Source: an uncultured delta proteobacterium (GTDB taxonomy: Bacteria > Myxococcota > UBA727 > VGSZ01). Taken from it: 64,000 nucleotides of DNA. Below, one piece after another: positions 2,811 to 57,683 of this stretch. The DNA is taken from positions 832,001-896,000 of the forward strand of contig CAVZJB010000016.1 in the NCBI GenBank assembly GCA_963775425.1. The letters are read 5' to 3'. How positions within the stretch are numbered: position 1 is the stretch's first letter; the number at the start of each line of letters is the position of its first letter. The position numbers and the translations under genes are program-made. Below the pieces are notes generated by a model. The model was not told the origin of the DNA. It made no database searches and worked only from the letters and a program-made list of their open reading frames with translations.

Positions 2811-2838
2811 GCGCGCCGTTGTCGACCCCCTCGGGCTT

Positions 2839-3444
2839 GTGTACGTCGTGCGCATGGCCCTCGCGTACCGCTCCCTCACCCCGCGCACCGTGGCCGCCGC
2901 CGCCGGCGCCGCCGTGGGCCTGGCCGCGGTGTTCGTGGACACGCTCGTCCCCGGGAGCCCGCTCGACGTCGTGAAGGACCCGCAGGCTCCCCTCGGAGAC
3001 CTGGTGAACGCCTGGCTGTTCGTGGTGGCGAGCGTCCTCGAGCTCGCCACCATGCTGTTGTGGATCTACGCGGGCGCGCGGAACCTGGTGGCGCTCCGCC
3101 GCGAGGCGCTCCGCTACACGCCGTTCACGTCGGTGGCGTGGTTCTTCATGCCCATCGCGAACCTGTGGATGGGCTACCGCGTGCTCGCCGAGATCTGGCG
3201 CGCGAGCGATCCGGAGGCGCGCGATCCGGCGGCGTGGGTCGAGACCAAGGCGCCGCTCAAGCTGCTCGCCTGGTGGCTCATCACCCTGTGCGGCGTCCTC
3301 GGCGACGACGGCCCCACCGCCGCCGGCTTCGTCGGCGTCGCGGTGAACGCGGTGTCCGCGGGGATGTTCGTGCTGCTCGCGTTCGAGCTGCGCGATCGCC
3401 AGGATGCGCTCGCCGCGCGCCTGTCGCGATCCTTCAGCGAGTGA
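2839..3444 (+). CDS. DUF4328-like membrane protein
   Basis: Several TM segments and the WFFMPIANLWMGYRVLAEIWRAS motif. Confidence 0.7.
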   Translation: MYVVRMALAYRSLTPRTVAAAAGAAVGLAAVFVDTLVPGSPLDVVKDPQAPLGDLVNAWLFVVASVLELATMLLWIYAGARNLVALRREALRYTPFTSVAWFFMPIANLWMGYRVLAEIWRASDPEARDPAAWVETKAPLKLLAWWLITLCGVLGDDGPTAAGFVGVAVNAVSAGMFVLLAFELRDRQDALAARLSRSFSE

Positions 3445-40117: not shown

Positions 40118-40292
40118 CTCCCTGGCTCGACGACGACGGTGCCTGGCTGCGGAGGTGCACTGAACAGCCGTCCCCCGGGGCGACCAGCCCCGCGATCATT
40201 CGACGACCGACGAGCTGGTGACGACGACGGCGCCAAGAAGAGGACGCCCGTGAGCCGGCGCCGCGCTACCATGACCCGCTTTGAGGTCCCCC

Positions 40293-41909
40293 ATGCGCTC
40301 TTGCACGATTGCCCTGCCGCTCCTCCTGTGCACGCTGCTCCTCGGCGCGCTCTCCCTCGGCTGCCCGCCCAGCCCCGCGAGCGAGGGCGAAGGAGAAGGC
40401 GACGCCGGCGAAGGCGAGGGCGAGGGCGAAGGGGAAGGGGAAGGTGAGCCCGGCGAAGGTGAAGGCGAAGGTGAAGGAGAGGGTGAAGGAGAGGGAGAGG
40501 GCGAAGGAGAGGGAGAGGGCGAAGGAGAAGGAGAGGGCGAAGGAGAAGGAGAGCCCCCCTGCGTCGCCGACGGCGACTGCCACAACGGCCTGCGCTGCGA
40601 CGTCCCAAGCGGGGCCTGCGTCGTCTGCCTCGGCGACGCCGACTGCGATCAGCAGGCCGGCGAGAGCTGCGTCGACGGCGACTGCGTGCAGCAGTGCGCC
40701 CGCAGCGCCGACTGCGTCGCCGACCCCGCCCGCGCCGTCTGCGACACCACGCGCGGCCAGTGCGTGGGCTGCGTGACGTCCAACGACTGCGACTTCGGCT
40801 CCGTCTGCGTCGACGACGCCTGCGAGGCCGGCTGCACCGTCGACAACGACTGCGGCCCCGGCGCCGTCTGCGAAGGCGCCGCCGCCGGCGTCCTCGGCGA
40901 ATGCGTCGCCGCCTGCGCCGGCGACGCCGACTGCGCCCTCGGCACGCACTGCGACAACGGCACCACCTGCGTCCTCGGCTGCAACGGCGACGACACCCGC
41001 TGCGGACAAAACCAGGTCTGCGCCGGCGATCGCTGCGCCACGGCGTGCAGCGCCGCGCGCGACTGCCCCGCCGGCGAGCGCTGCGACGCCGCGGGCGGCG
41101 CCTGCATCGCCGGCTGCGCCACCAACGACGACTGCGCCGGCGCCATCTTCTCGACCACCCCGGTGTGCGACACCGGCACGGGCCAGTGCGTGGGCTGCCT
41201 CGCCGACGCCGACTGCACCGCCATCAACTCGAACCTCCAGTGCGACGAGCCCGCGCAGCAGTGCCGCAGGACTTGCGACCCTGCGCAGAACAACGGCACG
41301 TGCTTCGCCCAGTTCGGCGCCGGTACCTGCGACACCGACGGCCTCTGCGTCGAGTGCACCGTCGACGACGACTGCCGCGCCGGCGAGACCTGCACCAACC
41401 GGACGTGCACCGTGCCGCCGGCGGCGTCGCCGCTGTGTCAGGTGTGCAACAACAATCTCGACTGCGGCGGCAGCGGCAGCACGAACCAGTGCATCCGACA
41501 CCCCGAGAGCCCGAACGGCGCCAGCGAGACCGTCTGCGCCCAGGACTGCTCCGACGGCAGCGCCTGCCCGAGCGGCTTCTCCTGCGAGCTGGTCAGCGAC
41601 GTCGACGTGCGCGGCGGCGTCGTCACGGGCCAACAGTGCGTGCCGAGCAACAGCGCCGTCGCCTTCCCCACCTGCGACGCGCTCCGGGACACCCTCGACG
41701 CCGCGGCCTGCCTGGCCAACTTCGGCGCCGCCTGCGGCTTCGACGCGCCCGGGGCCGGCGACGGCGTCTGCCTGCCGCCCGACGCCAACAGCAACAGCGG
41801 GGTGTGTACCCTGCCCTGCGGGGCAGCCACCGACTGCCCCGACGGCTTCACGTGTGAATCCGTCGCGTTCCCGGATTTCCCGGTGGACGCCGCCTGCGTT
41901 CCTCTGTGA
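40293..41909 (+). CDS. Cys-rich repeat lipoprotein with poly-GE linker
   Basis: SLGC lipobox, (GE)n, many CxxDxDC repeats. Confidence 0.88.
   Translation: MRSCTIALPLLLCTLLLGALSLGCPPSPASEGEGEGDAGEGEGEGEGEGEGEPGEGEGEGEGEGEGEGEGEGEGEGEGEGEGEGEGEPPCVADGDCHNGLRCDVPSGACVVCLGDADCDQQAGESCVDGDCVQQCARSADCVADPARAVCDTTRGQCVGCVTSNDCDFGSVCVDDACEAGCTVDNDCGPGAVCEGAAAGVLGECVAACAGDADCALGTHCDNGTTCVLGCNGDDTRCGQNQVCAGDRCATACSAARDCPAGERCDAAGGACIAGCATNDDCAGAIFSTTPVCDTGTGQCVGCLADADCTAINSNLQCDEPAQQCRRTCDPAQNNGTCFAQFGAGTCDTDGLCVECTVDDDCRAGETCTNRTCTVPPAASPLCQVCNNNLDCGGSGSTNQCIRHPESPNGASETVCAQDCSDGSACPSGFSCELVSDVDVRGGVVTGQQCVPSNSAVAFPTCDALRDTLDAAACLANFGAACGFDAPGAGDGVCLPPDANSNSGVCTLPCGAATDCPDGFTCESVAFPDFPVDAACVPL
40383..40553 (+). 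repeat. In-frame 6-bp Gly-Glu repeat
   Basis: (GGNGAR)n. Confidence 0.9.
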
Positions 41910-42668: not shown

Positions 42669-44954
42669 ATGACGAGCATCCCCGGCTCCCGCACCAACAA
42701 GCACGTCCGCGGACACCAGCCCGCCGGCCTCGAGGGAGAGCGCCTCGACACCGCCGGACAGGTGGGCCCGGACAAGCCCGCGACGCTCGTGTCCGCCGAC
42801 CGCGTCGTGCACGGCGGCCGGCGCATCGGCGAGATGCCGGCGCGCATGTCCGCGGCGTCGGGGACGCGCGCTTCGAGCCTGCTCGCGGTGCGCACCACCG
42901 GGGCCGGCCGCAGCGGCGACGTCATCCACGAGATCGCCACGCGCAAGGACTTCGACGCGCTGTTCGCCAAGGGCGCGTCGGTGACGGCGGGCGCGCCGTC
43001 GGAGCTCAAGTTCCTCGTCGACAGGAAGACGCACGAGATCTACTTCCTGCCGCCGAAGTACCCCTTCCACTTCGACTTCTACAAAAACGTCCTCCATGGG
43101 CCCATGGACGTCTCCGACTTCGACGCCCACGCCTACAACCGGCCCGATCGCGACTTCATCGCCGGCACCGTCACCGCCTACGACAGCTACGTGGACCCGC
43201 ACAGCGGCGACAAGGGCCAGATCTGCTTCTCCTTGTGGCCGACGGATCGCTTCGACGCCAAGCTGCTCGCCGAGGCCCACGACGCCATCGAGGGCGGGCT
43301 CTCCTTCCTGCAAAACGGCGAGCACGTCGACTTCCGCCCGGGCGGGCCCATCCAGGACAAGCTCGTCGAGGACAACAAGCGCGGCATCGAGGCGGCGGGC
43401 ATCGAGGTCAAGTCCAACCTCGATATCTCCAAAGGCCTCAAGTACATGGCGCTGTCCGACGGCGACGCCGTCGGCCGCCTCGTCGTCATCGACAAGGGCG
43501 CGGCCATGCCGGCGCTCTCGCGCAAGGACGTGGCGCTCTTCCTCGGCGACGTCCCTCCCGACGCGCCGCCGGTCGCCGCCATCTTCACGACGACGGTGCA
43601 GACGTACAACTCGCACCTCGGCATCAAGTACCGCCAGGACGACACGCCCTACTTCTACAAGTCGTTCTCCGACCAGGAGCTCAAGGACCTCAAGGCGCTC
43701 GCCGGAAAGCCCGTCAGCGTCGCCTGCGACGGCAAAGACGCCACCGTCACCGCCGCCACCGACGCGCAGGCGGCGGCGTATTTGAAGAGCATCAAGCCCA
43801 CCGGCCACATCCGGCTCACGCCCAACCTCGGCGAGAACCGCGCGCGCACCTTCGACGAGCTGTCGAAGGCGCTCGTCGGGCGAAGCGGCCGCTGGGACCA
43901 CGACGCCCTGGCGGCCTACGGCCGAAAGACCGCCGGCGTCGTCGAGCTCGCCAAGCTGCACGAGTCCGGCGCGTTCGCCGGCGCGGGCGGCGCGGGCGCG
44001 CCGACGGTGGTGGCGCCCCTGAAGCCCATGGGCATCCCCGCCAACTGGTACACGCGCTTCATCAAGACCGCCAAGGGCGACGACGGCGTCACGTTCTCCG
44101 ACCGCATCAAGCAGATGACGGCGGACCCGCGCTTCAAGGAGGACGGCGACTGGAAGCTGCAGACGCTCGCCAAGCTCCGCCATGACATCGCGCACGCCGA
44201 CATGCCCGCCGAGCTCCTGAAAGACATCCGTGAGCAGGTGGCGGCGCCGTACATCGAGGACCACCCGGGCCTCAACCGCGCGCGCATGCGCTCGTCGTCA
44301 CCGGTGGTCGAGGACGGCGGCGCCGGCAAGCTGCCCAACATGGCCGGCGCTTTCGACTCCCACGGCGCGCACTGGAAGAAGGGCCGCACCAAGAAGGACA
44401 CCCTCGACCACGCCACCAAGGCGTTCGCCGAGGGGCTGCAGAAGGACTACGCCGCCGTCTTCAACGACCGCGCCGTCTCCGAGCTGCAGTGGCACAACGT
44501 CGACCTCGACGAGGAGTCGGTCACCATGGCCGTCCTCGTCATGCCCAACCAGGAAAACGAGAAGGCGAACGGCGTCATCCGGGTGAACCAGGACCTCGCC
44601 GGCTTCTTCTCCGTCACGGGCGAGACGCAGTTCGGCGAGAACCTCGTCACCAACCCCGAACAGGGCGCGTCTCCCGACACGTTCATCGACGGCAACTACG
44701 ACGTGTTGAACGGCGCTGCCAAGCAGGACATCGAGTACGAGCGCGTGAGCAACATCCAGTCGTCGGACCCGCAGCGCGCGCACGCGCTCACCGACGACGA
44801 GATCCACGCGGTGTACGACGCGATGCACATCGTCCGCGACCACTTCGCCGCCCTCGAGGGCAAGCGCCCCGAGGAGTACGTCGACGAGTCCGAGATCAAG
44901 GTCCTCGACGACGGAAACGTCATGTTCAAGCAAGAGCGCCCCTGGGTCGAGTAG
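42669..44954 (+). CDS. PEP/pyruvate-binding (PPDK N-terminal ATP-grasp) domain protein with upstream phospho-His-like motif
   Basis: YGRKTAG, RMRSSSPVVED..MAGAFDS, GENLVTNP, ESEIK..KQERP; TTVQTYNSHLGIKYRQ resembles the swivel-domain SH motif. Confidence 0.75.
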   Translation: MTSIPGSRTNKHVRGHQPAGLEGERLDTAGQVGPDKPATLVSADRVVHGGRRIGEMPARMSAASGTRASSLLAVRTTGAGRSGDVIHEIATRKDFDALFAKGASVTAGAPSELKFLVDRKTHEIYFLPPKYPFHFDFYKNVLHGPMDVSDFDAHAYNRPDRDFIAGTVTAYDSYVDPHSGDKGQICFSLWPTDRFDAKLLAEAHDAIEGGLSFLQNGEHVDFRPGGPIQDKLVEDNKRGIEAAGIEVKSNLDISKGLKYMALSDGDAVGRLVVIDKGAAMPALSRKDVALFLGDVPPDAPPVAAIFTTTVQTYNSHLGIKYRQDDTPYFYKSFSDQELKDLKALAGKPVSVACDGKDATVTAATDAQAAAYLKSIKPTGHIRLTPNLGENRARTFDELSKALVGRSGRWDHDALAAYGRKTAGVVELAKLHESGAFAGAGGAGAPTVVAPLKPMGIPANWYTRFIKTAKGDDGVTFSDRIKQMTADPRFKEDGDWKLQTLAKLRHDIAHADMPAELLKDIREQVAAPYIEDHPGLNRARMRSSSPVVEDGGAGKLPNMAGAFDSHGAHWKKGRTKKDTLDHATKAFAEGLQKDYAAVFNDRAVSELQWHNVDLDEESVTMAVLVMPNQENEKANGVIRVNQDLAGFFSVTGETQFGENLVTNPEQGASPDTFIDGNYDVLNGAAKQDIEYERVSNIQSSDPQRAHALTDDEIHAVYDAMHIVRDHFAALEGKRPEEYVDESEIKVLDDGNVMFKQERPWVE

Positions 44955-45014: not shown

Positions 45015-46478
45015 ATGCCCGTGAACAACGTCGGAGACGTCCTCGCCACCGCGGTGATGCGCGAGCGCGCCGGTGAGCCCGAGACCAAGGCCGCGCAGGA
45101 CGCCATCGCCGACATCCTCGCCCACGGCGTGACGCGCGAAGAGCGCACCGAGGTCGCGCAGATGCTGCACAACCTCGAGGGCACGCCGCACGCGGGCCTC
45201 GCCCGCCGCATCTTCGACGGCGTCGCCCACGGCGCCGACGCGGGCCCGTTCGAGGAGCTCAAAGACAAGCTCACGGGCCCGGAGCCGGAGGGCGGGACGC
45301 CGTCGGTCACGTGGCGCGAGGAGGTCCCCACGGCCCCGCAGCAAAAGGCATGGAACGCGGTCATCACCCAGACCCAGCTCGAGCTGTCCGGGATCAACAA
45401 GACCGTCGGGCGCGGCTTTCACCAAAAGCAGATCTTCGGCGGCGCCGCCCGCATGAAGGTGAACCCGTCGCTGCCCAAGGAGGCGCAGATCCCGCCGTTT
45501 TGGGACGCCAACGCCGGCAAGCCGGTGGACCTGGCGGGGGTGGTGCGGATGTCCAACGGCCAGGGCTGCCCGTTCAAGGACGCCGGCCCCGACGTGCGCG
45601 GCCTCGCCGTGAAGCTCGTCGATCCGAACGGCAAGGGCTGGGACATCCTCTCCACCAACCGCCAGACCTTCGCCGAGGACGTCCCGCAGTTCATCGGCTT
45701 CACCAAGGCCAGCAAGGAGGCCAACCTGCGCGGCAACTCCGTCGTCGGCGAGCTCAAGCAGGCGGTGGTGCTCACCGAGGAGATCGGGCCCGTGCAGGCC
45801 ACGCGCATCTCCACGCAGCTCGCCAAGGACACCGTGCTCAAGCACGTCAACGGCCTCGCCACCGAGAGCTTCGACGGCGGCACGTTCAAGACGCCCGACG
45901 GACACCTCGCCAAGGTGTTGTTCACGCCGGTGCCCGGCGCCGTCGACTGCATGACGCGTCACGACGTCGAGAGGGACGAAAACGGGCTCACCACGGAGCT
46001 GTATCGCCACTTCGAGAGCGGTCCGGTGAAATTCCGCGTGCAGCTCAAGATCTTCTGCGGCAAGGGCGACGAGCTGAAGGCCAACGACCGCTGGGAGCCG
46101 TCCAGGATCATCGACGTCGGCGAGCTGTCCATCCCGCCGCCGGACAAGGCCGTCGATCAGAAGGTCCAGACCCTGGTGAACGGCATGCGCTTCAACCCGG
46201 GCACCGGCTTTCAGCCCGCCGGACAGATGACGCACGCGCGCGGGGCGCAGCCGGGCAAAAACGGCGACTACCTCGTCGACGGCATCTACAAAAAGAGCGC
46301 CGACAACCGCCTCGCCCTCGACGACACCCCCGCCGTGCTCTCCGTCGCCCGCGGCCTCGGCAACGGCGACGTCGACGCCGCCGTGTTTGGCGGCCTCGTC
46401 GCCGAGGTCGAAAAGCGCAACGCGCAGATGGCCGAGGAGGTCGAGGACGGCACCGTCGCCAAGCGGCTCGCGTCGTGA
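45015..46478 (+). CDS. Catalase-related heme protein with N-terminal helical extension
   Basis: RGFHQK (distal His), RMSNG..DAGPDVRGLAVK, DILSTN, FNPG, IYKKSADNR (proximal Tyr); GGAGG RBS. Confidence 0.8.
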   Translation: MPVNNVGDVLATAVMRERAGEPETKAAQDAIADILAHGVTREERTEVAQMLHNLEGTPHAGLARRIFDGVAHGADAGPFEELKDKLTGPEPEGGTPSVTWREEVPTAPQQKAWNAVITQTQLELSGINKTVGRGFHQKQIFGGAARMKVNPSLPKEAQIPPFWDANAGKPVDLAGVVRMSNGQGCPFKDAGPDVRGLAVKLVDPNGKGWDILSTNRQTFAEDVPQFIGFTKASKEANLRGNSVVGELKQAVVLTEEIGPVQATRISTQLAKDTVLKHVNGLATESFDGGTFKTPDGHLAKVLFTPVPGAVDCMTRHDVERDENGLTTELYRHFESGPVKFRVQLKIFCGKGDELKANDRWEPSRIIDVGELSIPPPDKAVDQKVQTLVNGMRFNPGTGFQPAGQMTHARGAQPGKNGDYLVDGIYKKSADNRLALDDTPAVLSVARGLGNGDVDAAVFGGLVAEVEKRNAQMAEEVEDGTVAKRLAS

Positions 46479-46521
46479 CGGAGCTCTCCGCGTGGGCCGC
46501 GGCGCGCGCGGCGGCCTGCCG

Positions 46522-46929
46522 GTGAGCGGCGCCCTGTCCCCGCTCGCCGAGGCGCTCTTGCGGCCGCTCCTCGACGGGCGCGCGGAGCCCGCGCTCACCG
46601 ATGACGAGCTCATGTCGCTCGCGGAGCGCGCGCAGCACCTCGCCGGCAACCAGGAGCTCGCGCACGAGCTCCTCGCCGTCGCGCGAAAGCTCGACGCCGC
46701 CGGCGCCGGCGTCGCCCGCGACCAGGCCATCGTCGTCGCGGCCGTCGTCCTCGAGGACGTGGAGCTCAACGGCGCGCTGTGCCGGAGGCTCTACGCGGGC
46801 AAGCGCAGCCTCGACAACGTCACCGGCCACCCCGAGGTCCGCCACGGCCCCGCGGCGCCGCCCGACCCCGCCCGCTCGGCCCTGTCCGCGCGGCTCGCCG
46901 CCCTGGCCGGCGTCGACCGAAAGCCCTGA
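46522..46929 (+). CDS. Small helical hypothetical protein, paralog of 50081..50365
   Basis: LTDDELMSLAERAQ..LLAVARKL..GAG..AAVVLEDVELN. Confidence 0.7.
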   Translation: MSGALSPLAEALLRPLLDGRAEPALTDDELMSLAERAQHLAGNQELAHELLAVARKLDAAGAGVARDQAIVVAAVVLEDVELNGALCRRLYAGKRSLDNVTGHPEVRHGPAAPPDPARSALSARLAALAGVDRKP

Positions 46930-46994
46930 GTGCGTGCGACGGTCACGCCCGCTGCGCCGCGGCCGGCGGTAGACTCCGGGTCCCGAGGTTCCCC

Positions 46995-49900
46995 ATGGCC
47001 ACCAGCATCAACAACAAGCAGGCCACCGCCCTCCCGCACATCAAAAAGCCGGACGTGTCGAGAGCCGGGCTCTCTAAAGTGGGGGCGCTCGTCGACAGCG
47101 GCGCCACCGACGAGGTGCGCGCCGAGAGCCGGATCGAGGGCACGGTCCCCCTGCAAAAGGCGCAGGCGTCGGCGCAGCTCCAGAAGGTCAGCGCCACGCG
47201 GATCCTGAAGCCGCCGCCGTTCGACCCCAAGCAGCCCGCGGACGCGCAGCTCATCGTCGCCGGCGCCGGCATCGGCGGCGGACCGATCTCGCGCCTCGCC
47301 GAGCAGGGCTTTCAGGTGAAGTTCCTCGAGGGCGGGCCCGCGCAGCGGGACTGGTTCGACGACGTGCCGCTGCTGCACGCCAAGGCATCGGACACCTCCT
47401 TCAACGTCGACGGCTATTCGCCGCCCATGGCGCTGCTCGCGTACTTCGTCGACCACTACGAAGCCCAACAGAAGAACCTCGACCTCAAGTTCCACGACGA
47501 GCTCGGCGGCATCCTCTACCCGCGCGGCCAGGGCCCCGGCGGCTCCGGCAACGTCAACGCCAACGTCGCCGTCGCGCCCGACAAGAAGTCGTGCGAAGGC
47601 CTCTTCGTCCAGTCGGGCAAGGACCCGCGCTTCTCGCCGGCCAGCCTGCAGAAGTACTTCGCGCGCGCGCAGGACACGGGGCCGCTGTTCTCGTTCCTCG
47701 AGACCGTCGGCCACGTCGCCAAGGCGCTGCAGGACAAGGGCCTCAAGCGCGAGGACTTCGCGCGCCTCACCGAGCCCGGCGGCTGGCAGCAGATCACCCA
47801 CGCCGTCGACCACCTGCGCCTGAAGGACCTCACCGGCGACCCGCAGCTCAGGGACATCACGCTGCACATCCTCGCGTACACGGCCAAGAAGCACAGCTTC
47901 GCCGACACGCTCATCCGCGTGATGACCCTGTTCGACTCCAACAACGAGCTGAACTTCGGGCGCGAGGGCTTCACCAACATGCCCATCTCCGTCGGCAAGG
48001 ACGGGCGGCGCTCGTCGGTGGTCGACCGCCTCAAGGCGGTGTTGCAGACGCGGCCGGACACCATGAGCCTCGAGTGCGAGACCAAGGTGCATAGCCTCAT
48101 CTTCAACAAGGAGGGCACCCGCGTCGAAGGCATGCGCGTGTTGAAGCCGGCCAAGGCGGTCCTCGAGCAACGGCAGCTCATCTACGCCCTGCAGGAGAAC
48201 CTGCCCAACATCCCGGCAGACAAGGTCGAGGACTACAACGCCCGCATCGGGCGCGAGATCGACAAGCTCAAGGAGCTCGAGGCCAACACGCCGCCGGAGA
48301 TGGAGATCAAACGCTCCACCAACGGCTACGTGCTCTCGGCGGGGACGTTCGAGGACCCCAACATCCTCATCCGCTCGGGCTACGGCCCCAAGGACGTCCT
48401 CGAGCGCCTCGGCATCCCGCCGGTGGGCGGCGCGTATCACGAGGCGGTGGGCAGGAACCTGAAGGACCGCCGCGAGATCACGGTGATGTACCACGCCAAG
48501 GACAAGTTCGCGCTCATCGACGGGCTCGGCCTCGGCAAGAACCCCCACAACGACGACGCCATGAAGGTCTGGGAGAAGTCCGGCCGCGGCCCCTACGCCA
48601 CCAACGGCGTCGTCTGCTCCTACCAGTTCAAGAGCGACCCTTCGCAGCCCGAGGCGGACATCTTCGCCTTCTTCGTGCCCGGTCCCTTCCGCGGCTACGA
48701 CACCGGCTACGCCGTCGACGCGACGAAGTATCCGCAGACGTTCACCGCGGTGCTTCTCGACAAGAACGGCAACCTCGTCTCCGACGACACCAAGCGGCTG
48801 ATGACGTCCGGCGAATTCGAGGAGCTGCGCGACAGGCTGGGCACCGTTCAGCCCGACCCCGAAGACCCCATGAAGTCTTCCATCAACTTCAACTACCAGC
48901 GGCCCAAGCCAGGCGAGAACCCGCCGCTGTACTCGGCCATGCTGCGCATGAAGGACCTGTTCAAGGGGCAGGACGTCCTCACCGAGCTGGTCCCCGGGGA
49001 CCCCTTCGACACGGCGCCCACCTCCAGCAAGGCGGACCTCATCCGCTTCGTCGAGAGCACCGACCTGTTCCCCAAGTACCCGGCCGACGATCTGCGCTCC
49101 GCCGAGGACTGGTTCCGCCAGATGGACGTGCCGCTGTTCGACAAGGACGGCAAAGAGCACAAGCTCACGCTGGTGCGCACGCCCCTGCCCGGCCAGGAGG
49201 GCGCGGAGAAGCCCGAGCTGTCCACGCGCGCCAAGCTCCTCGTCGACGGGAAGCCTGCGAGCGACAAGGCGCTCGCGGGGCTCTCGCTCGTCACGGGCAA
49301 GCCGCTGTCGGCGGCGGGGATGAAGGAGGCGCTGCAGCGCGGGTTCCTGATCGAATTCCAGGCTTCGCAGTCCTGGGGCCACCACGCCAACGGCACCTGC
49401 TCCATGGGGCCCGACGCGCAGAACAACGTCATCGGCTCGGACTTCCGCGTGCACGGCGTCGAGAACCTGTGGGTGGCGTCGGCGTCGTCGACGCCGGCGG
49501 CGGTGAATCCGGGCACCTTCATCCAGCTCTACGTCGCCGCGGCGGTGGGCGAAGCGGCCGGCGACGCCATCGGCGAACAGATGCGCGCCAACGAGAACCA
49601 CCTCGGGCGCATGTCGCCCCTGGCCACGCGCCTGCCGGCGGAGCAATCCAAGAAGAACACCCTCGGCGAGAACCTGCTCATCGCCATCGACCGGGCCCGC
49701 GGCCACGTCGGCGACTCCCAGGGCGTGCTCACGGGCGAAGCGGTGACGCAGCTCCTTGCCATGCAGAAGCAGCGCGGCTTCTCCAAGGACGACGTCGCCC
49801 TCGCGGAGAAGGTCTACGACCGCGCGGAGAAGCGCGAGGACAAAAACGCGCCCGTGTTGAAGGTGCTCGCCGGCGAGGTCCGCAAGATGAGGAAGGACCA

Positions 49901-50084
49901 GGGCTTCCTCCTCGACATCAAGGCGGCCCTGCGCCGCAACGGCGATCACCTCACGAGCGATCAGGTGCTGCGCGTCCTGCGCGAGGTCGGTCTTCGCGAA
50001 GACGAGATCGCGAAGACCACCGGCGCGCCGCCCGACGCCGGCGGCTCGGCCGACTGGGGTGCCGGCGGCGGGGTTGGATCATGA
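46995..50084 (+). CDS. GMC oxidoreductase with N- and C-terminal extensions
   Basis: VAGAGIGG FAD motif, YPRGQGPGGSGNVNA, LSAG..PNILIRSGYGP, VGRNLKDR, WGHHANGTCSMG, FRVHGVENLWVA. Confidence 0.9.
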   Translation: MATSINNKQATALPHIKKPDVSRAGLSKVGALVDSGATDEVRAESRIEGTVPLQKAQASAQLQKVSATRILKPPPFDPKQPADAQLIVAGAGIGGGPISRLAEQGFQVKFLEGGPAQRDWFDDVPLLHAKASDTSFNVDGYSPPMALLAYFVDHYEAQQKNLDLKFHDELGGILYPRGQGPGGSGNVNANVAVAPDKKSCEGLFVQSGKDPRFSPASLQKYFARAQDTGPLFSFLETVGHVAKALQDKGLKREDFARLTEPGGWQQITHAVDHLRLKDLTGDPQLRDITLHILAYTAKKHSFADTLIRVMTLFDSNNELNFGREGFTNMPISVGKDGRRSSVVDRLKAVLQTRPDTMSLECETKVHSLIFNKEGTRVEGMRVLKPAKAVLEQRQLIYALQENLPNIPADKVEDYNARIGREIDKLKELEANTPPEMEIKRSTNGYVLSAGTFEDPNILIRSGYGPKDVLERLGIPPVGGAYHEAVGRNLKDRREITVMYHAKDKFALIDGLGLGKNPHNDDAMKVWEKSGRGPYATNGVVCSYQFKSDPSQPEADIFAFFVPGPFRGYDTGYAVDATKYPQTFTAVLLDKNGNLVSDDTKRLMTSGEFEELRDRLGTVQPDPEDPMKSSINFNYQRPKPGENPPLYSAMLRMKDLFKGQDVLTELVPGDPFDTAPTSSKADLIRFVESTDLFPKYPADDLRSAEDWFRQMDVPLFDKDGKEHKLTLVRTPLPGQEGAEKPELSTRAKLLVDGKPASDKALAGLSLVTGKPLSAAGMKEALQRGFLIEFQASQSWGHHANGTCSMGPDAQNNVIGSDFRVHGVENLWVASASSTPAAVNPGTFIQLYVAAAVGEAAGDAIGEQMRANENHLGRMSPLATRLPAEQSKKNTLGENLLIAIDRARGHVGDSQGVLTGEAVTQLLAMQKQRGFSKDDVALAEKVYDRAEKREDKNAPVLKVLAGEVRKMRKDQGFLLDIKAALRRNGDHLTSDQVLRVLREVGLREDEIAKTTGAPPDAGGSADWGAGGGVGS

Positions 50085-50365
50085 ACAGCGACGACGTCAA
50101 CGCCATCGCCACCGAGGTCCTCGAGCGCTGCGCCCTCGCCGACGGCAAGCTCACGCTCGCTGACGGCGAGTTCGCCGCGTTCGGCAAGCGCATCCAGCAA
50201 GCCGACGACAAGAAGGCCTGGGGCACCGCGATGATCGCGCTCGCCAACCGCCTGCGCGGCGTCCCCGGCGCGGGCCCCGCCGCCGAGCGCGCCCTCGCCC
50301 TCGCCGCCGTCGCCCTCGGCGACGCCGAGCTCAACCGCCTCGTCAGCCGCGAGAACGCTCCTTGA
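50081..50365 (+). CDS. Small helical hypothetical protein, paralog of 46522..46929
   Basis: ATGA overlap with GMC stop; LADGEFAAFGKRIQ..MIALANRL..GAG..AAVALGDAELN. Confidence 0.75.
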   Translation: MNSDDVNAIATEVLERCALADGKLTLADGEFAAFGKRIQQADDKKAWGTAMIALANRLRGVPGAGPAAERALALAAVALGDAELNRLVSRENAP

Positions 50366-51192
50366 CCGTGCCGGCGCGGCGCTCTTTGGCCTCGCTTGAC
50401 GCCTACACGGTGGACTTCGCGCTCGACGGCCCCGGCAGCCTCGACCCCGGCGGCAGCGTGTCCACCCTCGATGGCCAGGCGTGCACCGGCTACGCGGCGC
50501 CCGATCCCTATCCCGCAGCAGGCGGCGAGGCCACGGTGCTCGCCGCGCTCGACGACGGCGTCGGCGCGGTGAGCGGCAGCGCGCAGATCGCGCTGCAGCC
50601 GACGTCGGGCGCCGCCGTGTGGAGCGGCACGCTCGAGGTGCACGAGGCGTGCACCATCACCACCATCGGCGAGAGCGGCCACCAGTGCGACGGCGCCTCC
50701 GTGCAGTGCGACCCGCGCGTCGACGAGGACGGCGTGAACGTGACCGTGGCGCTGCAGCTCGCGCGCGATGACGCGGGCACGTTCACCGCCACCGTCCAGA
50801 GCCTCGCCGAGGACCACCTCTTCGAGCTGACGTTCTGCGATCACCTCTTCTCGCACGAGGACGGGACCTCGACGGGCGTCGTCGACCAGGCCCTCGTCTC
50901 CGACGAAGGCGATGGGCTCGTGGTGACCATCTTCACCGAGGACGACATCCATACCGACGGCGGCGACGTCGACATCTGCACGCCGCGCAACCACACCGAC
51001 ACCAGCGCCCAACAGCAGCTCAGGCTCGCGCTCGTCGCCGACCCGCCGGGCGCGCCCGTGCCGACGCGCTTCGTGCTCGCCGATCCCCAGCCCGACATCG
51101 ACTCGTGCGTCGACGTGGACAACCCCAAGGACTCGGCTGTGGACACCTACGAGGGCGGCGTCACCCTCACCGGCGCGCTCACGCGCCCGTAG
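50362..51192 (+). CDS. Acidic beta-rich hypothetical protein with several Cys
   Basis: Coding-like codon bias; TTGA overlap with upstream gene; start uncertain. Confidence 0.6.
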   Translation: MTVPARRSLASLDAYTVDFALDGPGSLDPGGSVSTLDGQACTGYAAPDPYPAAGGEATVLAALDDGVGAVSGSAQIALQPTSGAAVWSGTLEVHEACTITTIGESGHQCDGASVQCDPRVDEDGVNVTVALQLARDDAGTFTATVQSLAEDHLFELTFCDHLFSHEDGTSTGVVDQALVSDEGDGLVVTIFTEDDIHTDGGDVDICTPRNHTDTSAQQQLRLALVADPPGAPVPTRFVLADPQPDIDSCVDVDNPKDSAVDTYEGGVTLTGALTRP

Positions 51193-51196
51193 GTGC

Positions 51197-51751
51197 TCAC
51201 CCCAACCAGCCGCGGATCTCGCCGTGCGGCTGCGGGATGAGCTCGATGCCGACGACGCGGTCTTCGCGCGCGCCGTCCTTCACGGCGTCGAGGGCGGCGG
51301 CGACGTCGGCGAGCGCGCCGGCGAGCGTGAACCAGCCCTTGCCGCCGACGCCGACGGCGAGGTGCATGCGCAGCACGGCGACGTCGACGGCCTTGAGCGC
51401 GGTGTCGGCGGCGAGCACCGCCGCGGCAGCCGTGCTCATCTCCACGATCCCGACGGCGTCGCCGGGCGCGGGCGCCACGGCCTGATCGATCGCGGGCAGG
51501 AGCTGCGGGTGCGCGCCGGGGAGGAACAGCTCGTCGACGAGGTCGGAGCCGGCGACCTCGAGGGCGACGGCGTGCGACTCGCGCGTGGCCTCGACGTCAC
51601 CCCCGAAGATCACGAGGAGCTTCCCGGGCGTGACCGGCTTCGCGTGCTTCACCGTCACCGGCGCCTTCTTCACGAGCGCGTCGAGCATGACGAGGCCGCG
51701 GGCGATGGACCCGGTCTCGACGACGGCGACGGCTTCGAGCGAAGAGCGCAT
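51197..51751 (-). CDS. Tandem-domain BMC shell protein (BMC-T)
   Basis: VETGSIARGLVMLDALVKKAPV..PGK..GDVEA and VGIVE..AADTALKAVDV..GVGGKG..IPQPH. Confidence 0.92.
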   Translation of the reverse strand: MRSSLEAVAVVETGSIARGLVMLDALVKKAPVTVKHAKPVTPGKLLVIFGGDVEATRESHAVALEVAGSDLVDELFLPGAHPQLLPAIDQAVAPAPGDAVGIVEMSTAAAAVLAADTALKAVDVAVLRMHLAVGVGGKGWFTLAGALADVAAALDAVKDGAREDRVVGIELIPQPHGEIRGWLG

Positions 51752-51808
51752 CGACCTTCCATGACGTCCGCGGGAGCGCCGATACACGGGCGCCCTACCC
51801 GTCGCCGG

Positions 51809-52360
51809 CTACACCTTCGGCGACGGCGCCTTCCTGGTGAACTTCTTTTCGTACGCGGCCAGGGAGCGCTCGACCACCTTCACGGCCTCGTCGAGCCCGA
51901 GCGGCGCGGCGACGCGCACGTCCTTCTCCTCGAGCGCCTTGTAGTCGCCGAAGAAGCGCATGACCTCGTTCATGCGGAAAGGCGCGAGGTCGTCGAGGGT
52001 GCGCACGCCGTCGAACATCGGGTCGCCGATCATCACGCCGATGATCTTGTCGTCGACGTCGCCCTGGTCGATCATCGGCATCACCCCGATGACGCGCGCG
52101 CTCAACAGCGCCCCCGGCTGCACGTCCTCCTGCGAGAGCACCAGGACGTCGAGGGCGTCGCCGTCGTCGTCGAGGGTCTGCGGGATGAAGCCGTAGTTGG
52201 CGGGGTAGTGGATGGCCCCGTAGAGCACGCGGCTCGCCCGCAGGAGGCCGGAGTCCTTGTCGATCTCGTACTTGACGCGGCCCCCGCGCGGGATCTCGAC
52301 GAAGACGTCCACGACGCGCGGGACGCCGCTTCCGGGGCTCAGATCGTGCCAGGCATGCAT
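51809..52360 (-). CDS. ppa: Inorganic pyrophosphatase (family I)
   Basis: VEIP, KYEIDK, YPANYGFIPQTL, DDGDALDVL, DDKI, FFGDYKALE. Confidence 0.96.
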   Translation of the reverse strand: MHAWHDLSPGSGVPRVVDVFVEIPRGGRVKYEIDKDSGLLRASRVLYGAIHYPANYGFIPQTLDDDGDALDVLVLSQEDVQPGALLSARVIGVMPMIDQGDVDDKIIGVMIGDPMFDGVRTLDDLAPFRMNEVMRFFGDYKALEEKDVRVAAPLGLDEAVKVVERSLAAYEKKFTRKAPSPKV

Positions 52361-52403
52361 GCGCGCGGTTGTAGACCGCCCGGGGTGCTCCCGTCGACGC
52401 CCC

Positions 52404-52427
52404 GTACGGCGGGGGCTCGTCCCCCGC
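52404..52427 (+). repeat. Single REP copy (GTAC variant)
   Basis: GTACGGCGGGGGCTCGTCCCCCGC; flanks resemble those of the 29444 copy. Confidence 0.8.
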
Positions 52428-52491
52428 GTCGTCATGATCCGGCGCGGTCGACGTTGCCGGTGCCCTCCCACGCGCCCCACAAGGGCGCGCC

Positions 52492-53946
52492 CTACGGCCG
52501 CTCCTGGAGCGGCCCGACGACGACGGCGGGCGCGACCAGCGTCGCGGCGGCGGCGGTGAGGCCCTGCTGCGACGCGCTTCCGACGGCGCCCCAGCGAAGC
52601 GCCGCCTCGTCGGACGCGGTGGCGAGGTCGAGGGGCACGGAGAAGACCATGGCCAGGTCGGCGGGGCCGGTGTTGGTGAGGCTCCCCGCGCCCGGCCCGG
52701 CGCCGAAGTAGGTGTCAAGGATCGCGTCGGTGTCGTCGCTGTCGAAGGCGTCGGCGCCCTCGACGAAGGCGGCGGCGCACCCGGGAGCGCCGCAGATGCG
52801 CATGGCGCCGGTGCCGGCGTCGCGAAACGACGTGTTGTTGTCGAAGGAGGGCACGTCGACGTCGAAGAGCAGGCGCACCTCGGCCGGCGCGGTCGTCGCC
52901 GCACCGGAGATGAAGCTCACGCCCACGAAGCCGGGAACGGCGTCGTCGAGGGCGACGAGCTCGCGGATGACGAGGCCGTCGGGCCCGGCCGCGCTCTGGC
53001 CGACGACGGTGAAGCCGCCGTCGACGAATTTCCGCCGCGCGCCGCTCACCGGCGACAGCAGCGCGGGCGGCGCAGGGGGAGAGCCGCCGCAGGAGCTCGG
53101 CGCGAACGCCTTGTCGGCACCGTCGACGAGCCCGATGGCGCGCTCGAAGAAGAGGTCGTCCTGCGAGGAGAACATCTCGTTGCCGTGGAGCGTGAGCGGC
53201 GCGTCGCCGGAGTTGCCGCCGTTGCGGCCGAAGCGCATGGGCGCGCCCGCGCCGGCGTACATGGAGAGCAGCCAGAAGTCGTTGCGCCACGTCGGCGGCG
53301 GCGCGGCCGTGCCGTCGTCGAAGTACACGGTGAGCGGGTGGGGGCCGCTGCCGGCGGGGAGCCGCGCGAAGAGCCAGACGCGCCCGGCGCCGCGGTCGGC
53401 GAACGCGGGGACCAGCGCGCCGTCCTCGGCGTGCACGCGCAGCGACGGCGGGTCCGCGACCGCGCCGCTGTGTCCGGCGGCCGCGAGCAGGCCGTCGAGA
53501 TCGAGCGGCACGATCGCCGTCGCCGGCCCTGCCTCGTCGATCGCGACGTCGACGGCGAAGGCGAGCCCGGGCTCGAGCCACGGGTCGCCCTCTCCTTCGC
53601 CCTCGCCCTCCCCTTCTCCTTCGCCTTCGCCTTCCCCTTCGCCCTCTCCTTCGCCCTCTCCTTCGCCCTCTCCTTCGCCTTCGCCTTCTCCCTCGCCCTC
53701 TCCTTCGCCTTCGCCTTCGCCTTCTCCCTCGCCTTCGCCTTCGCCCTCCCCTTCACCGGACTCGCCCTCCCCTTCACCCTCGCCCTCGCCCTCGTCGCCG
53801 GCGAGCGCCACGATGCACGCCCCCGCCGCGCACGTGTAGCCCGAGACGCAGGCGTGGGTGTCGTCGCAGCTCTTGCCGCCGAGCGCGACGTCGTCGACGC
53901 AGGAGGAGACGGCGCAGGCGGTGATGAGCAGGAGTGCGAAGCGCAC
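52492..53946 (-). CDS. Lipoprotein with Cys-rich N-domain, long poly-GE linker and beta-rich C-domain
   Basis: VRFALLLITACAVSSC lipobox, CDDTHACVSGYTCAAGAC, long (GE)n. Confidence 0.8.
   Translation of the reverse strand: MRFALLLITACAVSSCVDDVALGGKSCDDTHACVSGYTCAAGACIVALAGDEGEGEGEGEGESGEGEGEGEGEGEGEGEGEGEGEGEGEGEGEGEGEGEGEGEGEGEGEGEGEGEGEGEGDPWLEPGLAFAVDVAIDEAGPATAIVPLDLDGLLAAAGHSGAVADPPSLRVHAEDGALVPAFADRGAGRVWLFARLPAGSGPHPLTVYFDDGTAAPPPTWRNDFWLLSMYAGAGAPMRFGRNGGNSGDAPLTLHGNEMFSSQDDLFFERAIGLVDGADKAFAPSSCGGSPPAPPALLSPVSGARRKFVDGGFTVVGQSAAGPDGLVIRELVALDDAVPGFVGVSFISGAATTAPAEVRLLFDVDVPSFDNNTSFRDAGTGAMRICGAPGCAAAFVEGADAFDSDDTDAILDTYFGAGPGAGSLTNTGPADLAMVFSVPLDLATASDEAALRWGAVGSASQQGLTAAAATLVAPAVVVGPLQERP
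53586..53793 (-). repeat. In-frame 6-bp Gly-Glu repeat (longest in window)
   Basis: (CCTTCG/CCCTCT)n on + strand. Confidence 0.9.
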
Positions 53947-53968
53947 GGCCCCAGAGTAGCACCCCCCG

Positions 53969-54666
53969 TCAGCGCCGGATCGTTCCGGGTCGGGGGTGCG
54001 GCGGGCTCCGGGGAGGGGGCTCGTCGCCGCTTCCGGTGGCGGCGGCGCGCACGCCGCGGTCCGCGTCATGGGCGAGGGCGTGCAGGACGTCGGCCGCGCC
54101 GTGGACGCCGCGCAGGGCACGGGCGACGGCGGCGCGCACGGCGGGGGCGGCGTCGGCGCGCAGGCCGAGGGTGACGCCGAGATCGCCCGGCCCCCGGCGC
54201 GCGGCGAGCGCGTCGACGGCGCGCGCGAGGAGCGCCGCGCGCCGTTCGCCGCCGCCCGCCCTCTCCCGCGCGATGACCGCGAGCGCGACCTCGCGCACCC
54301 GCGGCGCGCCCGGCGCCGCGGCGGCGCGCCGCGCGAGGCAGTCGAGCGCCTGCAGCTCGGTGCTCTGCGCCCCCGCCGACGGCGCCGGCGCCTGCGCGAC
54401 CGCCGCCCCCTCTGCGGCGAGGAGCCCCGGATACGCGGGCGTGTCGACATGGCGGCACATCGCGTCCGCGACGAACGCGCCGACGGAGCGCTCCACGCCC
54501 GCGTCGATCTCGAACACGAGCACGAGCGCGTCGTCGGCGAGGAGGGCGCGAAGCTGGACGCGAGCACGGCGAGCGCCTTGTCGTCGACGCGATCGGCCGG
54601 GTCGTTCACCGGGGGCGGCGCCGCAGCGAGGACCAACGCGAGGGCGAGCGCCGCCGGGCACCTCAC
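53969..54666 (-). pseudogene. Exported HEAT-repeat-like protein split by a frameshift near 54560-54570
   Basis: Signal peptide MRCPAALALALVLAA..DKALAVL in one frame; body RVQLRALLADD..DAAPAVRAAVARAL..DADRGVRAAA in another. Confidence 0.55.
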
Positions 54667-56184
54667 ACGATGCGGAAGTAGTCCTTCAGCGTGCAGCGGC
54701 GCTCACGGGAAAACGAGAATCGCCGTCGTGAGGCCCTCACCCGTGGGCGAAGCGATGGTGAAGCTGGTGTAGCCCTCGCCGCCGAGGCCGAGGCCCGCGA
54801 ACGTGGGCGCGTTCTTCACGTAGATGGAGCAGTCGATGGCGCGGGCCATCTTGTGCAGCGTCTCGATGTTGGTGGAGTAGCACGTGGCCGTGTGCCCGAA
54901 GCCGTGCTCGCAGCGCACCGCGGCGGCGATGGCCTCGTCGACGTCCTTGACGCGCACCATGGGGAGCACCGGCATCAACAGCTCGGTCTGCACGAAGGGG
55001 TGGTCCTCGCCGTCCACCTCGCACAGCAGGACGCGCGTGGACTCGGGGACGGTCTTGCCGATGGCGCGGGCGATCTTGGCCGCGTCCTTGCCGACCCAGT
55101 CCTTGTGGGGGTGGGCGCCGTCGTCGGCGAGGACGAGCTTCTCGAGCTTGCTGATGTCCGCCCGCGACATCTCGGCGCCGCCGGCAGCGAGGATCTCGCG
55201 CTTGAGCATGTCCGCGATCTCACGGACCGCGAACACCTCCTTCTCCGCGATGCACACGATGTTGTTGTCGAGCGACGCGCCCGCGACGATGCCCTTGCCC
55301 GCGCGGCGCATGTCGGCGGTCTCGTCGACGACCACGGGCGGGTTGCCGGGGCCGCCGCAGATGGCGCGCTTGCCCGAGGTCATCGCCGCCTTGACCACGC
55401 CCGGCCCGCCGGTGACGACGACGAGGCGGATGCCCGGGTGGCGCATGAGCGCGTTGGCGCTCTCGATGGTGGGCTCGCCGATCATGGCGATGAGCGAGTC
55501 CGGCCCGCCGGCGGCGACGATGGCGTCGTTGAGTTGCTCGACCAGGAAGCGGCAGACCTTCTTGGCGCCCGGGTGGACGTTGAACACCACCGAGTTGCCC
55601 GCGGCGATCATGCCGATGGAGTTGCAGATGATGGTCTCGGTGGGGTTGGTGGTGGGCGTGATGGCGCCGATGACGCCGTAAGGGGCCCGCTCCATCAACA
55701 CGAGGCCGTCGTCGCCGGACTGCGCCCACGGCCGGAGGATCTCCGTGCCGGGCGTCTTGTCGGTGACGAGCTTGTTCTTGTTGATCTTGTCGTCGAACCT
55801 GCCGAGGCCCGTCTCGTCGACGGCCATCTGCGAGATCTGCTGCACGATCTGGTGGCAACGCGCGCGGATGGCGGCGATGACCCGGTCGCGGTCCGCCAGG
55901 TGCATCTCGTGGACGAGGATCTCGTGGGCGCCGCGGGCGGCCTTCACGGCGCTGTCGATGTCGTCGAACACGCCGCGCCTGGCGGAGCCGTGCACCGCGA
56001 ACGACCGGCGCCCGCCCCCGCCGCCGATGGACGCGCGCCACGCGGGCTCGGGGGGCGTGGGGGCGCACACCTCGCCGCGGGCGGGCGTGGGCACGGGAGG
56101 CGCGCGACGCTCGAGCGCGGGGGCGAGCCGCTCGACCACGCGGGCGACGATCTCTTCCACCTTGCGGTCGTCGAAGCTCGCCAT
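54663..56184 (-). CDS. eutE: Acylating aldehyde dehydrogenase (EutE/PduP type) with N-terminal encapsulation peptide; frameshift near 54719
   Basis: PYGVIGAITPTTNP, VTGGPGVV, GPGNPP, LDNNIVCIAEKE, ELLMP, TIASPTGEG; expected tail SFSRERRCTLKDYFRIV lies in a shifted frame ending 54663. Confidence 0.93.
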
Positions 56185-56187
56185 GGG

Positions 56188-56490
56188 TCAGCTCGCCGCT
56201 TCCGACTTCCGGTAGCGGGACTTCCCCTGCACCGTGATCTCGTCGACGATGGCCATGATGACGTGGTCGACGGGCTTGTTGCGCGTGACCTCGGTCTGCC
56301 GCGCGGACGAGCCCGCCGCGTAGAGCACGAGCTCGCCCACACCCGCGCCGACGGCGTCGGCGGCGACCACGACGGAGCTGGTGAGCTTGCCGTCGAGGTC
56401 CACGCCCCGCACGACGAGGAGCTTGATGCCCTCGATCTCCGGCTCTTTGCGCGTGGACACCACGGTGCCGACAATCTGCCCCATCAACAT
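56188..56490 (-). CDS. eutN: BMC vertex pentamer (EutN/CcmL family, BMC-P)
   Basis: [43 protein letters not shown]. Confidence 0.95.
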
Positions 56491-56506
56491 GGCTCAACTC
56501 CGAAAG

Positions 56507-56625
56507 GCGGGGACGAGCCCCCGCACGAAGCGGGGGACGAGCCCCCGCACGAAGCGGGCGACGAGCCCCCGCACGAAGCAGGGGACGAGCCCCCGTTCGA
56601 AGCGGGGGACGAGCCCCCGCCCTAC
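56507..56625 (-). repeat. Tandem array of five REP palindromes, about 24-bp period
   Basis: GCGGGGGACGAGCCCCCGCACGAA-type units ending in CCCTAC (GTAG on minus strand); same core as the 17836 array. Confidence 0.9.
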
Positions 56626-56924
56626 TTCTTGGTGGCTCCGAGGGGAAGGACGTCGTCGATGTTGGCGTGCGGCCGCGGGATGACGTGCACGCTCACGAGC
56701 TCGCCGACGCGCTCGGCCGCGCGGGCGCCGGCCTCGGTGGCGGCCTTCACGGCCGCGACGTCGCCGCGGACGATGGCGGTGACGAACCCCCCGCCGTAGC
56801 CCTTCTCGTAGCCCACGAGGCTCACCTTGGCGGCCTTCACCATGGCGTCGCTGGCCTCGACCATGCCGACGAAGCCCTTGGTCTCGATGAGACCCAACGC
56901 CTGCCCAACCACGCTGTCTGCCAT
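56622..56924 (-). CDS. eutM: BMC hexamer shell protein (EutM/PduA type, BMC-H)
   Basis: [43 protein letters not shown]; GGAGG RBS. Confidence 0.96.
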
Positions 56925-56938
56925 CTCTGTCCTCCGAG

Positions 56939-57574
56939 CTATTTGTCCTTGGACGTCGCCGGAGCGACGCCGGTGATGCCTTCGAGCGCGGCCGTCGCCG
57001 CGGCCGCCGCGCTGTCGATCTCGCTCTCGCTGCCCGCCATGTACAAGCGCCCGAAGGCGCCGAACGGCAGGAAGTCCACGAGGCGCACGTTGGCCGCTTT
57101 CTCGGCCTCGTTGGCGGCCAACGCGATGTACGCCGCGGGCTCGCACTCCATGATGAGCAGCGACAGGCCCGGCTCGATCATCGCGCCGAAGCGGATCTTG
57201 TCGATGATCATCGCGTGCATCGGCTCGATGGCGCGGATGATGGTGTTGGACACCACGCGCGGCTTGATGCGGTCGTCGACCTTGTTGCCGAGCTGCTTGA
57301 GGATGGCGTCGCCCGCGGAGAGCACCTCGCCCTTGTCCTCGTGGTGCACCTCGAGCATACCGTAGGCGCGCTCGACGACGAGCGTGGCCGGCTGCGCGCG
57401 CGTGTTCTTGAGCGCGGAGTCGAGCAGGCGGTGGATGGCCATGCCCGGCGCGATCTCGACGAAGAGGGACGCGACGCCCGGCACCGGGAAGTAGCCGCGG
57501 CACGTCGTGCAGATGTGCGCCGCTACCTGCGGCTGCAGCGAGTCGAGGAAGGTGTAGCTGCGCAGAGTCGCCAT
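56939..57574 (-). CDS. Permuted tandem BMC shell protein (CcmP-like BMC-T)
   Basis: [54 protein letters not shown]. Confidence 0.93.
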
Positions 57575-57683
57575 GATGGCGCGCGGAGTAGCACTGCGGA
57601 GCGGTCGGTCGCAAGCGGTACGAGCCACTTCGGACGCCGCCGAGGCGGAGACGTCCGGCGGTGCGGCGCAGTAGCCTCGTGGC

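Follow-up and report, generated by a model that had tools for sequence, protein, structure and literature searches.

Introduction

The closest described counterparts of the locus reported here are type III secretion effectors with an adjacently encoded chaperone (class I, SycE/CesT; class II, LcrH-type TPR), which share with it the arrangement of a small non-enzymatic protein encoded beside a larger enzyme. Class I chaperones have an α/β fold with a five-stranded sheet. [quoted passage not shown] Further comparisons are offered by the coral proteins cAOS-LOX and cHPL-LOX, in which, according to excerpts of the source, a catalase-related heme domain is fused to an oxidative enzyme (PMC5617202), by GMC oxidoreductases (choline oxidase/dehydrogenase and alcohol oxidase 8rpf) and by gatekeepers of the YopN–TyeA, MxiC, InvE and SepL type, which are four-helix modules, split or fused. 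Here, we analyze positions 45015–50365 of a 64 000-nucleotide stretch (hereafter the window) of contig CAVZJB010000016.1 (assembly GCA_963775425.1), from an uncultured member of the Myxococcota, in which a catalase-like gene and a gene for a GMC-family flavoenzyme are each followed by a gene for a small helical protein (partners A and B).

The module formed by these genes is real, conserved and undescribed; no description of the partner family or of a GMC–catalase fusion was found in the literature searched, with most subscription papers and supplements lying outside the search. The best explanation of the locus as a whole, to which we give somewhat less than an even chance, is a coupled oxidase/heme-enzyme module, possibly exported, in which each enzyme has a docking domain bound by a cognate chaperone-like partner. 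A first-pass annotation made from the sequence had compared the arrangement to effector–chaperone, effector–adaptor or effector–immunity modules, with one adaptor family serving different cargo enzymes.

Gene organization

The features of the locus are as follows.

45015–46478, + strand: catalase-like gene (487 aa), assigned to the heme enzymes of the small-catalase/cAOS type
45015–45281, + strand: N-terminal domain of the catalase (residues 1–89), candidate docking site for partner A
46475–46525, + strand: 16-codon frame with a GTGA overlap with the catalase stop and a GTGA overlap with the partner A start
46522–46929, + strand: partner A (135 aa, GTG start), family core plus a C-terminal extension of ∼40 aa, catalase-linked clade
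46995–50084, + strand: GMC-family flavoenzyme (1029 aa) with a low-complexity leader of ∼80 aa, two insertions and a C-terminal helical tail
49635–49934, + strand: C-terminal helical tail of the GMC (residues 881–980), candidate docking domain for partner B
50081–50365, + strand: partner B (94 aa), ATGA overlap with the GMC stop, five helices and a short β-hairpin

All four open reading frames (ORFs) have a G+C content at third codon positions of 0.95–0.97, which is of the coding type (window G+C ∼0.7). Along the + strand from the preceding PPDK_N gene through catalase, A and GMC to B, the gaps are 60, 43, 65 and −4 nt, the last being the ATGA by which partner B, as had been claimed, is coupled to the GMC stop. 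The peptides quoted in the first-pass annotation are present in the translations. Partner A starts 43 nt past the catalase stop, with no direct coupling between them; the 16-codon frame in between may act as a relay of translational coupling or may have arisen by chance.

The partner family

Partners A and B are identical at 25 of 74 positions (34%), and BLASTP with composition adjustment gives an E value of 0.055, which would be unconvincing on its own. We accept them as paralogues, as had been proposed from an alignment by eye, because their Smith–Waterman score of 87 was reached by none of 20 000 full and none of 20 000 block shuffles (maxima of 64 and 67, respectively), because each is the best non-self match of the other among the 469 reading frames of the window and because three relatives (P0023, P0025 and P0027) bridge them, with B-type N-terminal halves and the A-type end ELNGxLCR. 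Profiles of the two subfamilies also match each other (z = 12.6 and 7.2, with 0/150 in both nulls).

A profile built from A and B retrieved 20 proteins of 65–145 aa, two of them the window's own, and a profile of these 20 sequences found 34 representatives (58–151 aa) among 1.84 billion. The family set comprises 52 sequences, all of them small helical proteins, including a partner from a second locus, L001 (see below). A tree of 50 rows cut to 100 residues (the fragments P0024 and P0038 were left out) contains a clade A with support of 99/99, a clade B (100/95), a clade that unites the L001 partner with the fusion proteins P0028 and P0031 (96/91) and, with weak support, a distal group made up of 15 sequences. 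Relatives with names are from Myxococcota or Myxococcaceae.

No library gives the small proteins a consistent name, and the statement that they have no recognized family stands: they constitute a new protein family, filed in no known one. Pfam has no match for A or B and only three weak single-member matches among the 20 members scanned, none of these members having a chaperone or TPR domain; the 11 NCBIfam matches among 51 members are scattered, one member each, with none common to two. PHROGs gave no match for four partners and the GMC tail and a single one, of unknown function (E = 3e-4), for the catalase N-terminal domain, while PADLOC matched 0/7 proteins. A PDB sequence search with the partner gave nothing below E = 0.6, the ESM Atlas returned only unnamed sub-0.9 matches for partner B and none for the GMC tail, and no family member was found in plasmid and phage records with P0025 as query. 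Nor were further copies of the partner, the tail or the catalase N-terminal domain found among the 630 frames of the window and L001.

The AlphaFold2 model of partner B (predicted local distance difference test score, pLDDT, of 94.9) consists of five helices and two three-residue strands that form a short hairpin, and so lacks the fold of the class I chaperones. Foldseek gave no match at E ≤ 0.001 for either the partner or the GMC tail, the best VIA Z scores of the two (7.7 and 7.4, respectively) are both to generic helical neighbours, and helical-repeat proteins are among the weak structural matches of the partner. Ala, Leu and Gly account for most of its conserved positions, joined by Asp81, and there is no catalytic signature, a pattern that would suit a binding protein and not an enzyme.

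The GMC flavoenzyme and its helical tail

The Pfam domains GMC_oxred_N and GMC_oxred_C are both above cut-off in the window GMC, which has the GxGxxG motif for flavin adenine dinucleotide (FAD) binding at residue 90. GMC oxidoreductases have an active-site pair of His and His/Asn, the second position of which is catalytic. The window enzyme resembles known members (choline oxidase/dehydrogenase, alcohol oxidase 8rpf) in its FAD motif, fold family and first active-site histidine, represented by the invariant His796/His797, and differs from them in its leader, its helical tail and a non-canonical second position, which aligns to Thr841/Phe842 or to Ser/Phe, with the invariant Asn838 and Gln844 nearby. 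It falls far under the NCBIfam cut-offs for every named subfamily. Two insertions (residues ∼385–432 and ∼700–790) are confined to the window GMC and P0063, which are 62% identical to each other and ∼30% identical to the remaining GMCs, and define a second GMC subfamily.

A search with the GMC tail, covering longer proteins and limited to 8000 candidates, gave eight matches, all eight of them GMCs with a helical tail of ∼100 residues. All eight also carry an N-terminal leader of 55–80 residues that is unconserved and poor in aromatic residues, Leu and Cys (1–9% compared with 15–17%), and in none of the eight did a simple scan find a Sec-like hydrophobic stretch or a twin-arginine motif. By simple composition, and in lacking Sec-like and Tat features, these variable, polar leaders resemble the type III signal as characterized in parts of PMC6140923. 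The tail itself is helical in its AlphaFold2 model (pLDDT 73).

Two family members, P0028 and P0031, begin with the final two helices of the tail (z = 16.8 and 14.1 against that of L001) and run through a short linker into a partner domain. Their tail halves score 87–114 against L001-type tails and 25–44 against window-type tails, and in the tree the partner halves share a clade with the partner of L001; therefore, tail type and partner type agree. That both proteins start at the same position argues for their being real. A complex prediction for GMC residues 862–1005 with partner B gave 0.01 in two runs (mark 0.32), with controls that did not fold, and counts neither way.

The fusions bear on the suggestion that the partner is an immunity protein, which would inhibit the upstream enzyme and so protect the producer, much as in a toxin–antitoxin pair. 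A small ATGA-coupled gene directly downstream would suit this suggestion, as a toxin gene followed by its immunity gene is the usual order, and a peroxide-forming oxidase could be toxic. Myxobacteria do use effector–immunity pairs, according to sections of PMC10433427. However, P0028 and P0031 point to the accessory tail and not to the catalytic core, a catalase-like enzyme is no obvious self-toxin and inhibition would require one and the same fold to obstruct two active sites of unrelated kinds, and for this last reason in particular we regard immunity as improbable and as the least likely of the three options raised by the first-pass annotation. That proposal is supported in part, in that one family does lie behind two enzymes, the pairing recurs and tail–partner fusions exist.

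When tail and partner are offset by ∼19, the lengths of their helices match, and several weak structural neighbours are common to both. These features are suggestive of the tail being a copy of the partner domain, an idea that came by eye, but it found no support in sequence (profiles, z = 0.9–2.3; hhalign, 0.2%). Partner and tail might nevertheless be repeats of one four-helix module akin to the X-bundle of the SctW gatekeepers (YopN–TyeA/InvE/SepL), acting as a split secretion-timing tag on enzymes. The shared helix lengths and neighbours would fit, the top 20 structural matches of the partner include InvE (Z = 5.8, r.m.s.d. 3.0, 72 aligned) and SepL (Z = 5.3, r.m.s.d. 3.6, 79 aligned), and YopN/TyeA, like tail and partner, occur split or fused, as stated in parts of PMC2724173. 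These Z scores, however, are in the generic helical-bundle range and below those of unrelated matches, InvE and SepL are outside the top 50 of the tail, and the profiles of tail and partner do not match significantly. The modules described here, moreover, are without a sequence match to the gatekeepers and are attached to enzymes, not to a secretion gene cluster. We therefore consider this kinship highly improbable.

The catalase-related enzyme and its link to the GMC

The best solved relative of the catalase-like enzyme is PDB entry 3e4w (E = 2.2e-10, or 1.1e-13 to 3e4w/3e4y with a profile), the match spanning the catalase core only (residues 174–381); this small catalase-related protein reportedly has peroxidase activity. 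A query of the first 205 residues gave a set of six orthologues, including the window's own, in all of which Arg133, His136, Asn215, Arg409, Tyr425 and Arg432 are invariant, while Arg178 is present in four. By motif and spacing the heme residues match Arg64, His67, Asn137, Tyr353 and Arg360 of coral cAOS (PMC5617202), and the protein is accordingly classed, on its heme residues, among the catalase-related heme proteins (small catalase/cAOS type). Since cAOS, with the same residues, cannot scavenge H2O2 according to excerpts of that source, these residues do not fix the reaction of the window enzyme. The window catalase differs from cAOS in having Phe at the position of Thr66 and an insertion between Arg409 and Tyr425.

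The two enzymes are also found as one polypeptide. P0062 (1139 aa) is a natural GMC–tail–catalase fusion with Pfam GMC N, GMC C and Catalase domains; its C-terminal part is 39% identical to the window catalase over 401 columns (E = 2e-67), and the window GMC matches it with E = 2e-61 plus 1e-25 for the tail region. Because of this fusion we assign the GMC and the catalase-related enzyme to a common system. The two enzymes had been called unrelated, which is correct for their folds, but they are not independent; similarly, the notion of one adaptor family with different cargo is borne out in that both enzymes are followed by members of one family, a pairing met again beyond the window, and has to be amended in that the enzymes form one functional pair. 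As in coral cAOS-LOX, a catalase-related heme domain is thus fused to an oxidative enzyme; unlike there, the fusion partner is a GMC flavoprotein and not a lipoxygenase, and the window system adds accessory helical domains and small partner proteins.

In P0062 the tail occupies the place that the N-terminal 89 residues have in the window catalase, and a BLAST high-scoring segment that begins at residue 53 enters the tail. This catalase N-terminal domain is conserved in the six orthologues, two of which have a shorter N-terminus. When anchored at the PSxTW linker it is in register with the P0062 tail, with a summed z of 4.0 for the six catalases (2/5000 in both nulls), and it is probably a diverged copy of the GMC tail. 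A four-helix accessory domain of ∼90–100 residues is thus established at the C-terminus of the GMC and probable at the N-terminus of the catalase.

The fusion could also be taken to favour a cytoplasmic scaffold, the main rival to our explanation, in which the partners would bind the docking domains and each other (A–B), replacing the covalent link and channelling peroxide, with nothing being exported. P0062 shows that proximity matters, both enzymes and both partners are encoded in one gene run, signal peptides are absent and enzymes with bound cofactors are ill suited to being exported in an unfolded state. The scaffold, however, leaves the unconserved low-complexity leader on all eight GMCs unexplained, and L001 has a GMC and a partner with no catalase-like ORF called nearby; we regard it as unlikely.

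Recurrence of the enzyme–partner linkage

A genome scan with a narrow pattern matched 478 stretches, of which one (L001, Myxococcaceae) was confirmed. In L001 a partner is ATGA-coupled behind a GMC that is 30% identical to that of the window and has the same kind of leader and tail. L001 also contains an ORF (2323–4074, − strand) that lies ∼3.5 kb from the GMC, lacks a signal peptide and has a helical extension at its N-terminus; by eye it resembles a calpain-type peptidase. A likeness of its N-terminus to the catalase N-terminal domain, also noticed by eye, was rejected, as neither the tail nor the catalase N-domain hidden Markov model (HMM) matches it.

Two further assemblies point to linkage of catalase orthologues with clade-A partners. 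The orthologue P0065 (VGO62_03765) and the partner-A orthologue P0009 (VGO62_03760) have consecutive locus tags and a contig of 2287 bp each, and a 3140 bp contig is listed for both the orthologue P0068 and the clade-A partner P0007; the two genes are thus likely to adjoin in each case. A partner is therefore encoded adjacent to its putative substrate twice in the window, once in L001 and, it seems, in these two further cases. As to whether homologues consistently lie behind large enzymes, every context seen or deduced agrees with the linkage, but this covers only five members and two fusions of the 52.

This coverage leaves room for the view that the partners belong to a broader family of the Myxococcota, have their own role and owe their position to local duplication and linkage, without direct binding. 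The existence of the distal group of 15 sequences, the small number of contexts and the unbalanced counts of clade-B partners and GMCs (see below) would be in keeping with it. Against it, coupling is kept with GMCs that are only 30% identical, tail–partner fusions exist in which tail and partner types agree, and a separate clade tracks the catalase. We judge an independent role to be quite improbable.

Proposed function

In the favoured explanation, that of a coupled module with docking domains and cognate partners, the GMC would oxidize its substrate and yield peroxide, and the heme enzyme would consume the peroxide either as a catalase or in a peroxide-driven second step. Such coupling, which is deduced from the fused occurrence of the enzymes and the general behaviour of GMC oxidases, is likely. 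Each small partner would bind, as an approximately stoichiometric, chaperone-like subunit, to the accessory domain of the enzyme whose gene precedes its own, with translational coupling setting the enzyme:partner ratio. While the fused and the split forms were emerging, docking domain and partner would have evolved into distinct cognate pairs. We lean slightly towards binding of the partner to the helical domain. One partner family could serve two folds because both enzymes probably share one helical docking domain. In the least certain step, the partners would hold the enzymes and offer them to a type III-like export route that requires no signal peptide, a role that is possible and on balance doubtful.

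A number of observations weigh against this explanation. The candidate docking domain of the GMC is C-terminal, in contrast to the chaperone-binding domain of type III effectors directly behind the signal, and is a folded domain of ∼90 aa; the partner, unlike class I chaperones, is predicted to be almost all-helical. The catalase has no disordered leader, FAD and heme would have to be inserted once the unfolded enzymes had been exported, and the 35 window ORFs scanned include no type III gene. Peroxide production by the GMC is not assured, because the second active-site position aligns to Thr841/Phe842. The homology of the catalase N-terminal domain and the tail is put no higher than probable because the unanchored tests are weak or negative (z = 2.1–2.8; HMM, 379/5000; hhalign not significant) and because the idea came by eye before the test; even when anchored, single catalases give z values of 0.4–4.2 and two of the six fail. 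P0028 and P0031 could be partial gene calls, and no full-length GMC–partner fusion was found, either among 15 long proteins or among the 34 matches, none of which exceeds 151 aa. The link to these enzymes is seen or deduced for only seven of the 52 family members, and in L001 no catalase-like ORF was seen by eye in the ORF calls for the 10 kb flanking each side. Finally, there are 14 clade-B partners and two window-type GMCs, and for three of the former on contigs of 8–14 kb (P0016, P0019 and P0021) there is no contig of the same size among the GMC-tail matches, so that these three may adjoin other genes.

Neighbouring genes

The PPDK_N gene (phosphoenolpyruvate/pyruvate-binding; 42669–44954, + strand), which ends 60 nt 5′ of the catalase gene, encodes a product with an N-terminus of low complexity and a weak match to a phosphohistidine-like domain; within this operon it may be another extended enzyme, the third, without a partner gene of its own. 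Downstream, the first possible start (TTG) of a 276-codon ORF (50362–51192, + strand) overlaps the partner B stop; this ORF has no Pfam or NCBIfam match, and no counterpart was seen among the L001 ORFs read. It is followed on the opposite strand by microcompartment genes (51197–58201, − strand) that encode BMC-domain proteins, EutN/CcmL, an aldehyde dehydrogenase and a pyrophosphatase; the aldehyde dehydrogenase has a short N-terminal helix that resembles an encapsulation peptide. A tie between the module and these genes was rejected, since they are on the opposite strand and absent from the called L001 ORFs, and no evidence links them to it. Long Glu-Gly (EGEGEG) repeats behind a signal-peptide-like start are present in three ORFs (23188–25056, − strand; 40281–41909, + strand; ∼53500–53800, − strand). 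No σ70 promoter was found, and terminator-like sites are at chance level.

Conclusions

This analysis delineates a protein family and a helical domain borne by enzymes, both of them without a name, which apparently work as a pair. It is conceivable, and in our opinion decidedly unlikely, that a single new four-helix docking module underlies both the tail/catalase N-terminal domain and the partner. Myxococcota would then have grafted it onto unrelated enzymes, at either end, and the free cognate copy would serve as an all-helical export chaperone of a new class; the cargo would be an oxidase and a heme enzyme, delivered together, which produce and consume peroxide on prey. If this were true, it would provide candidate substrates and a tag for the myxobacterial type III-like systems, the effectors of which are listed as unknown in the sections of PMC10433427 cited above. 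If the partners form a scaffold, the module would be a compact, natural means of linking an oxidase that makes peroxide with a heme enzyme; if they are export chaperones, the helical domain would be a tag by which enzymes secreted by predatory Myxococcota could be searched for.

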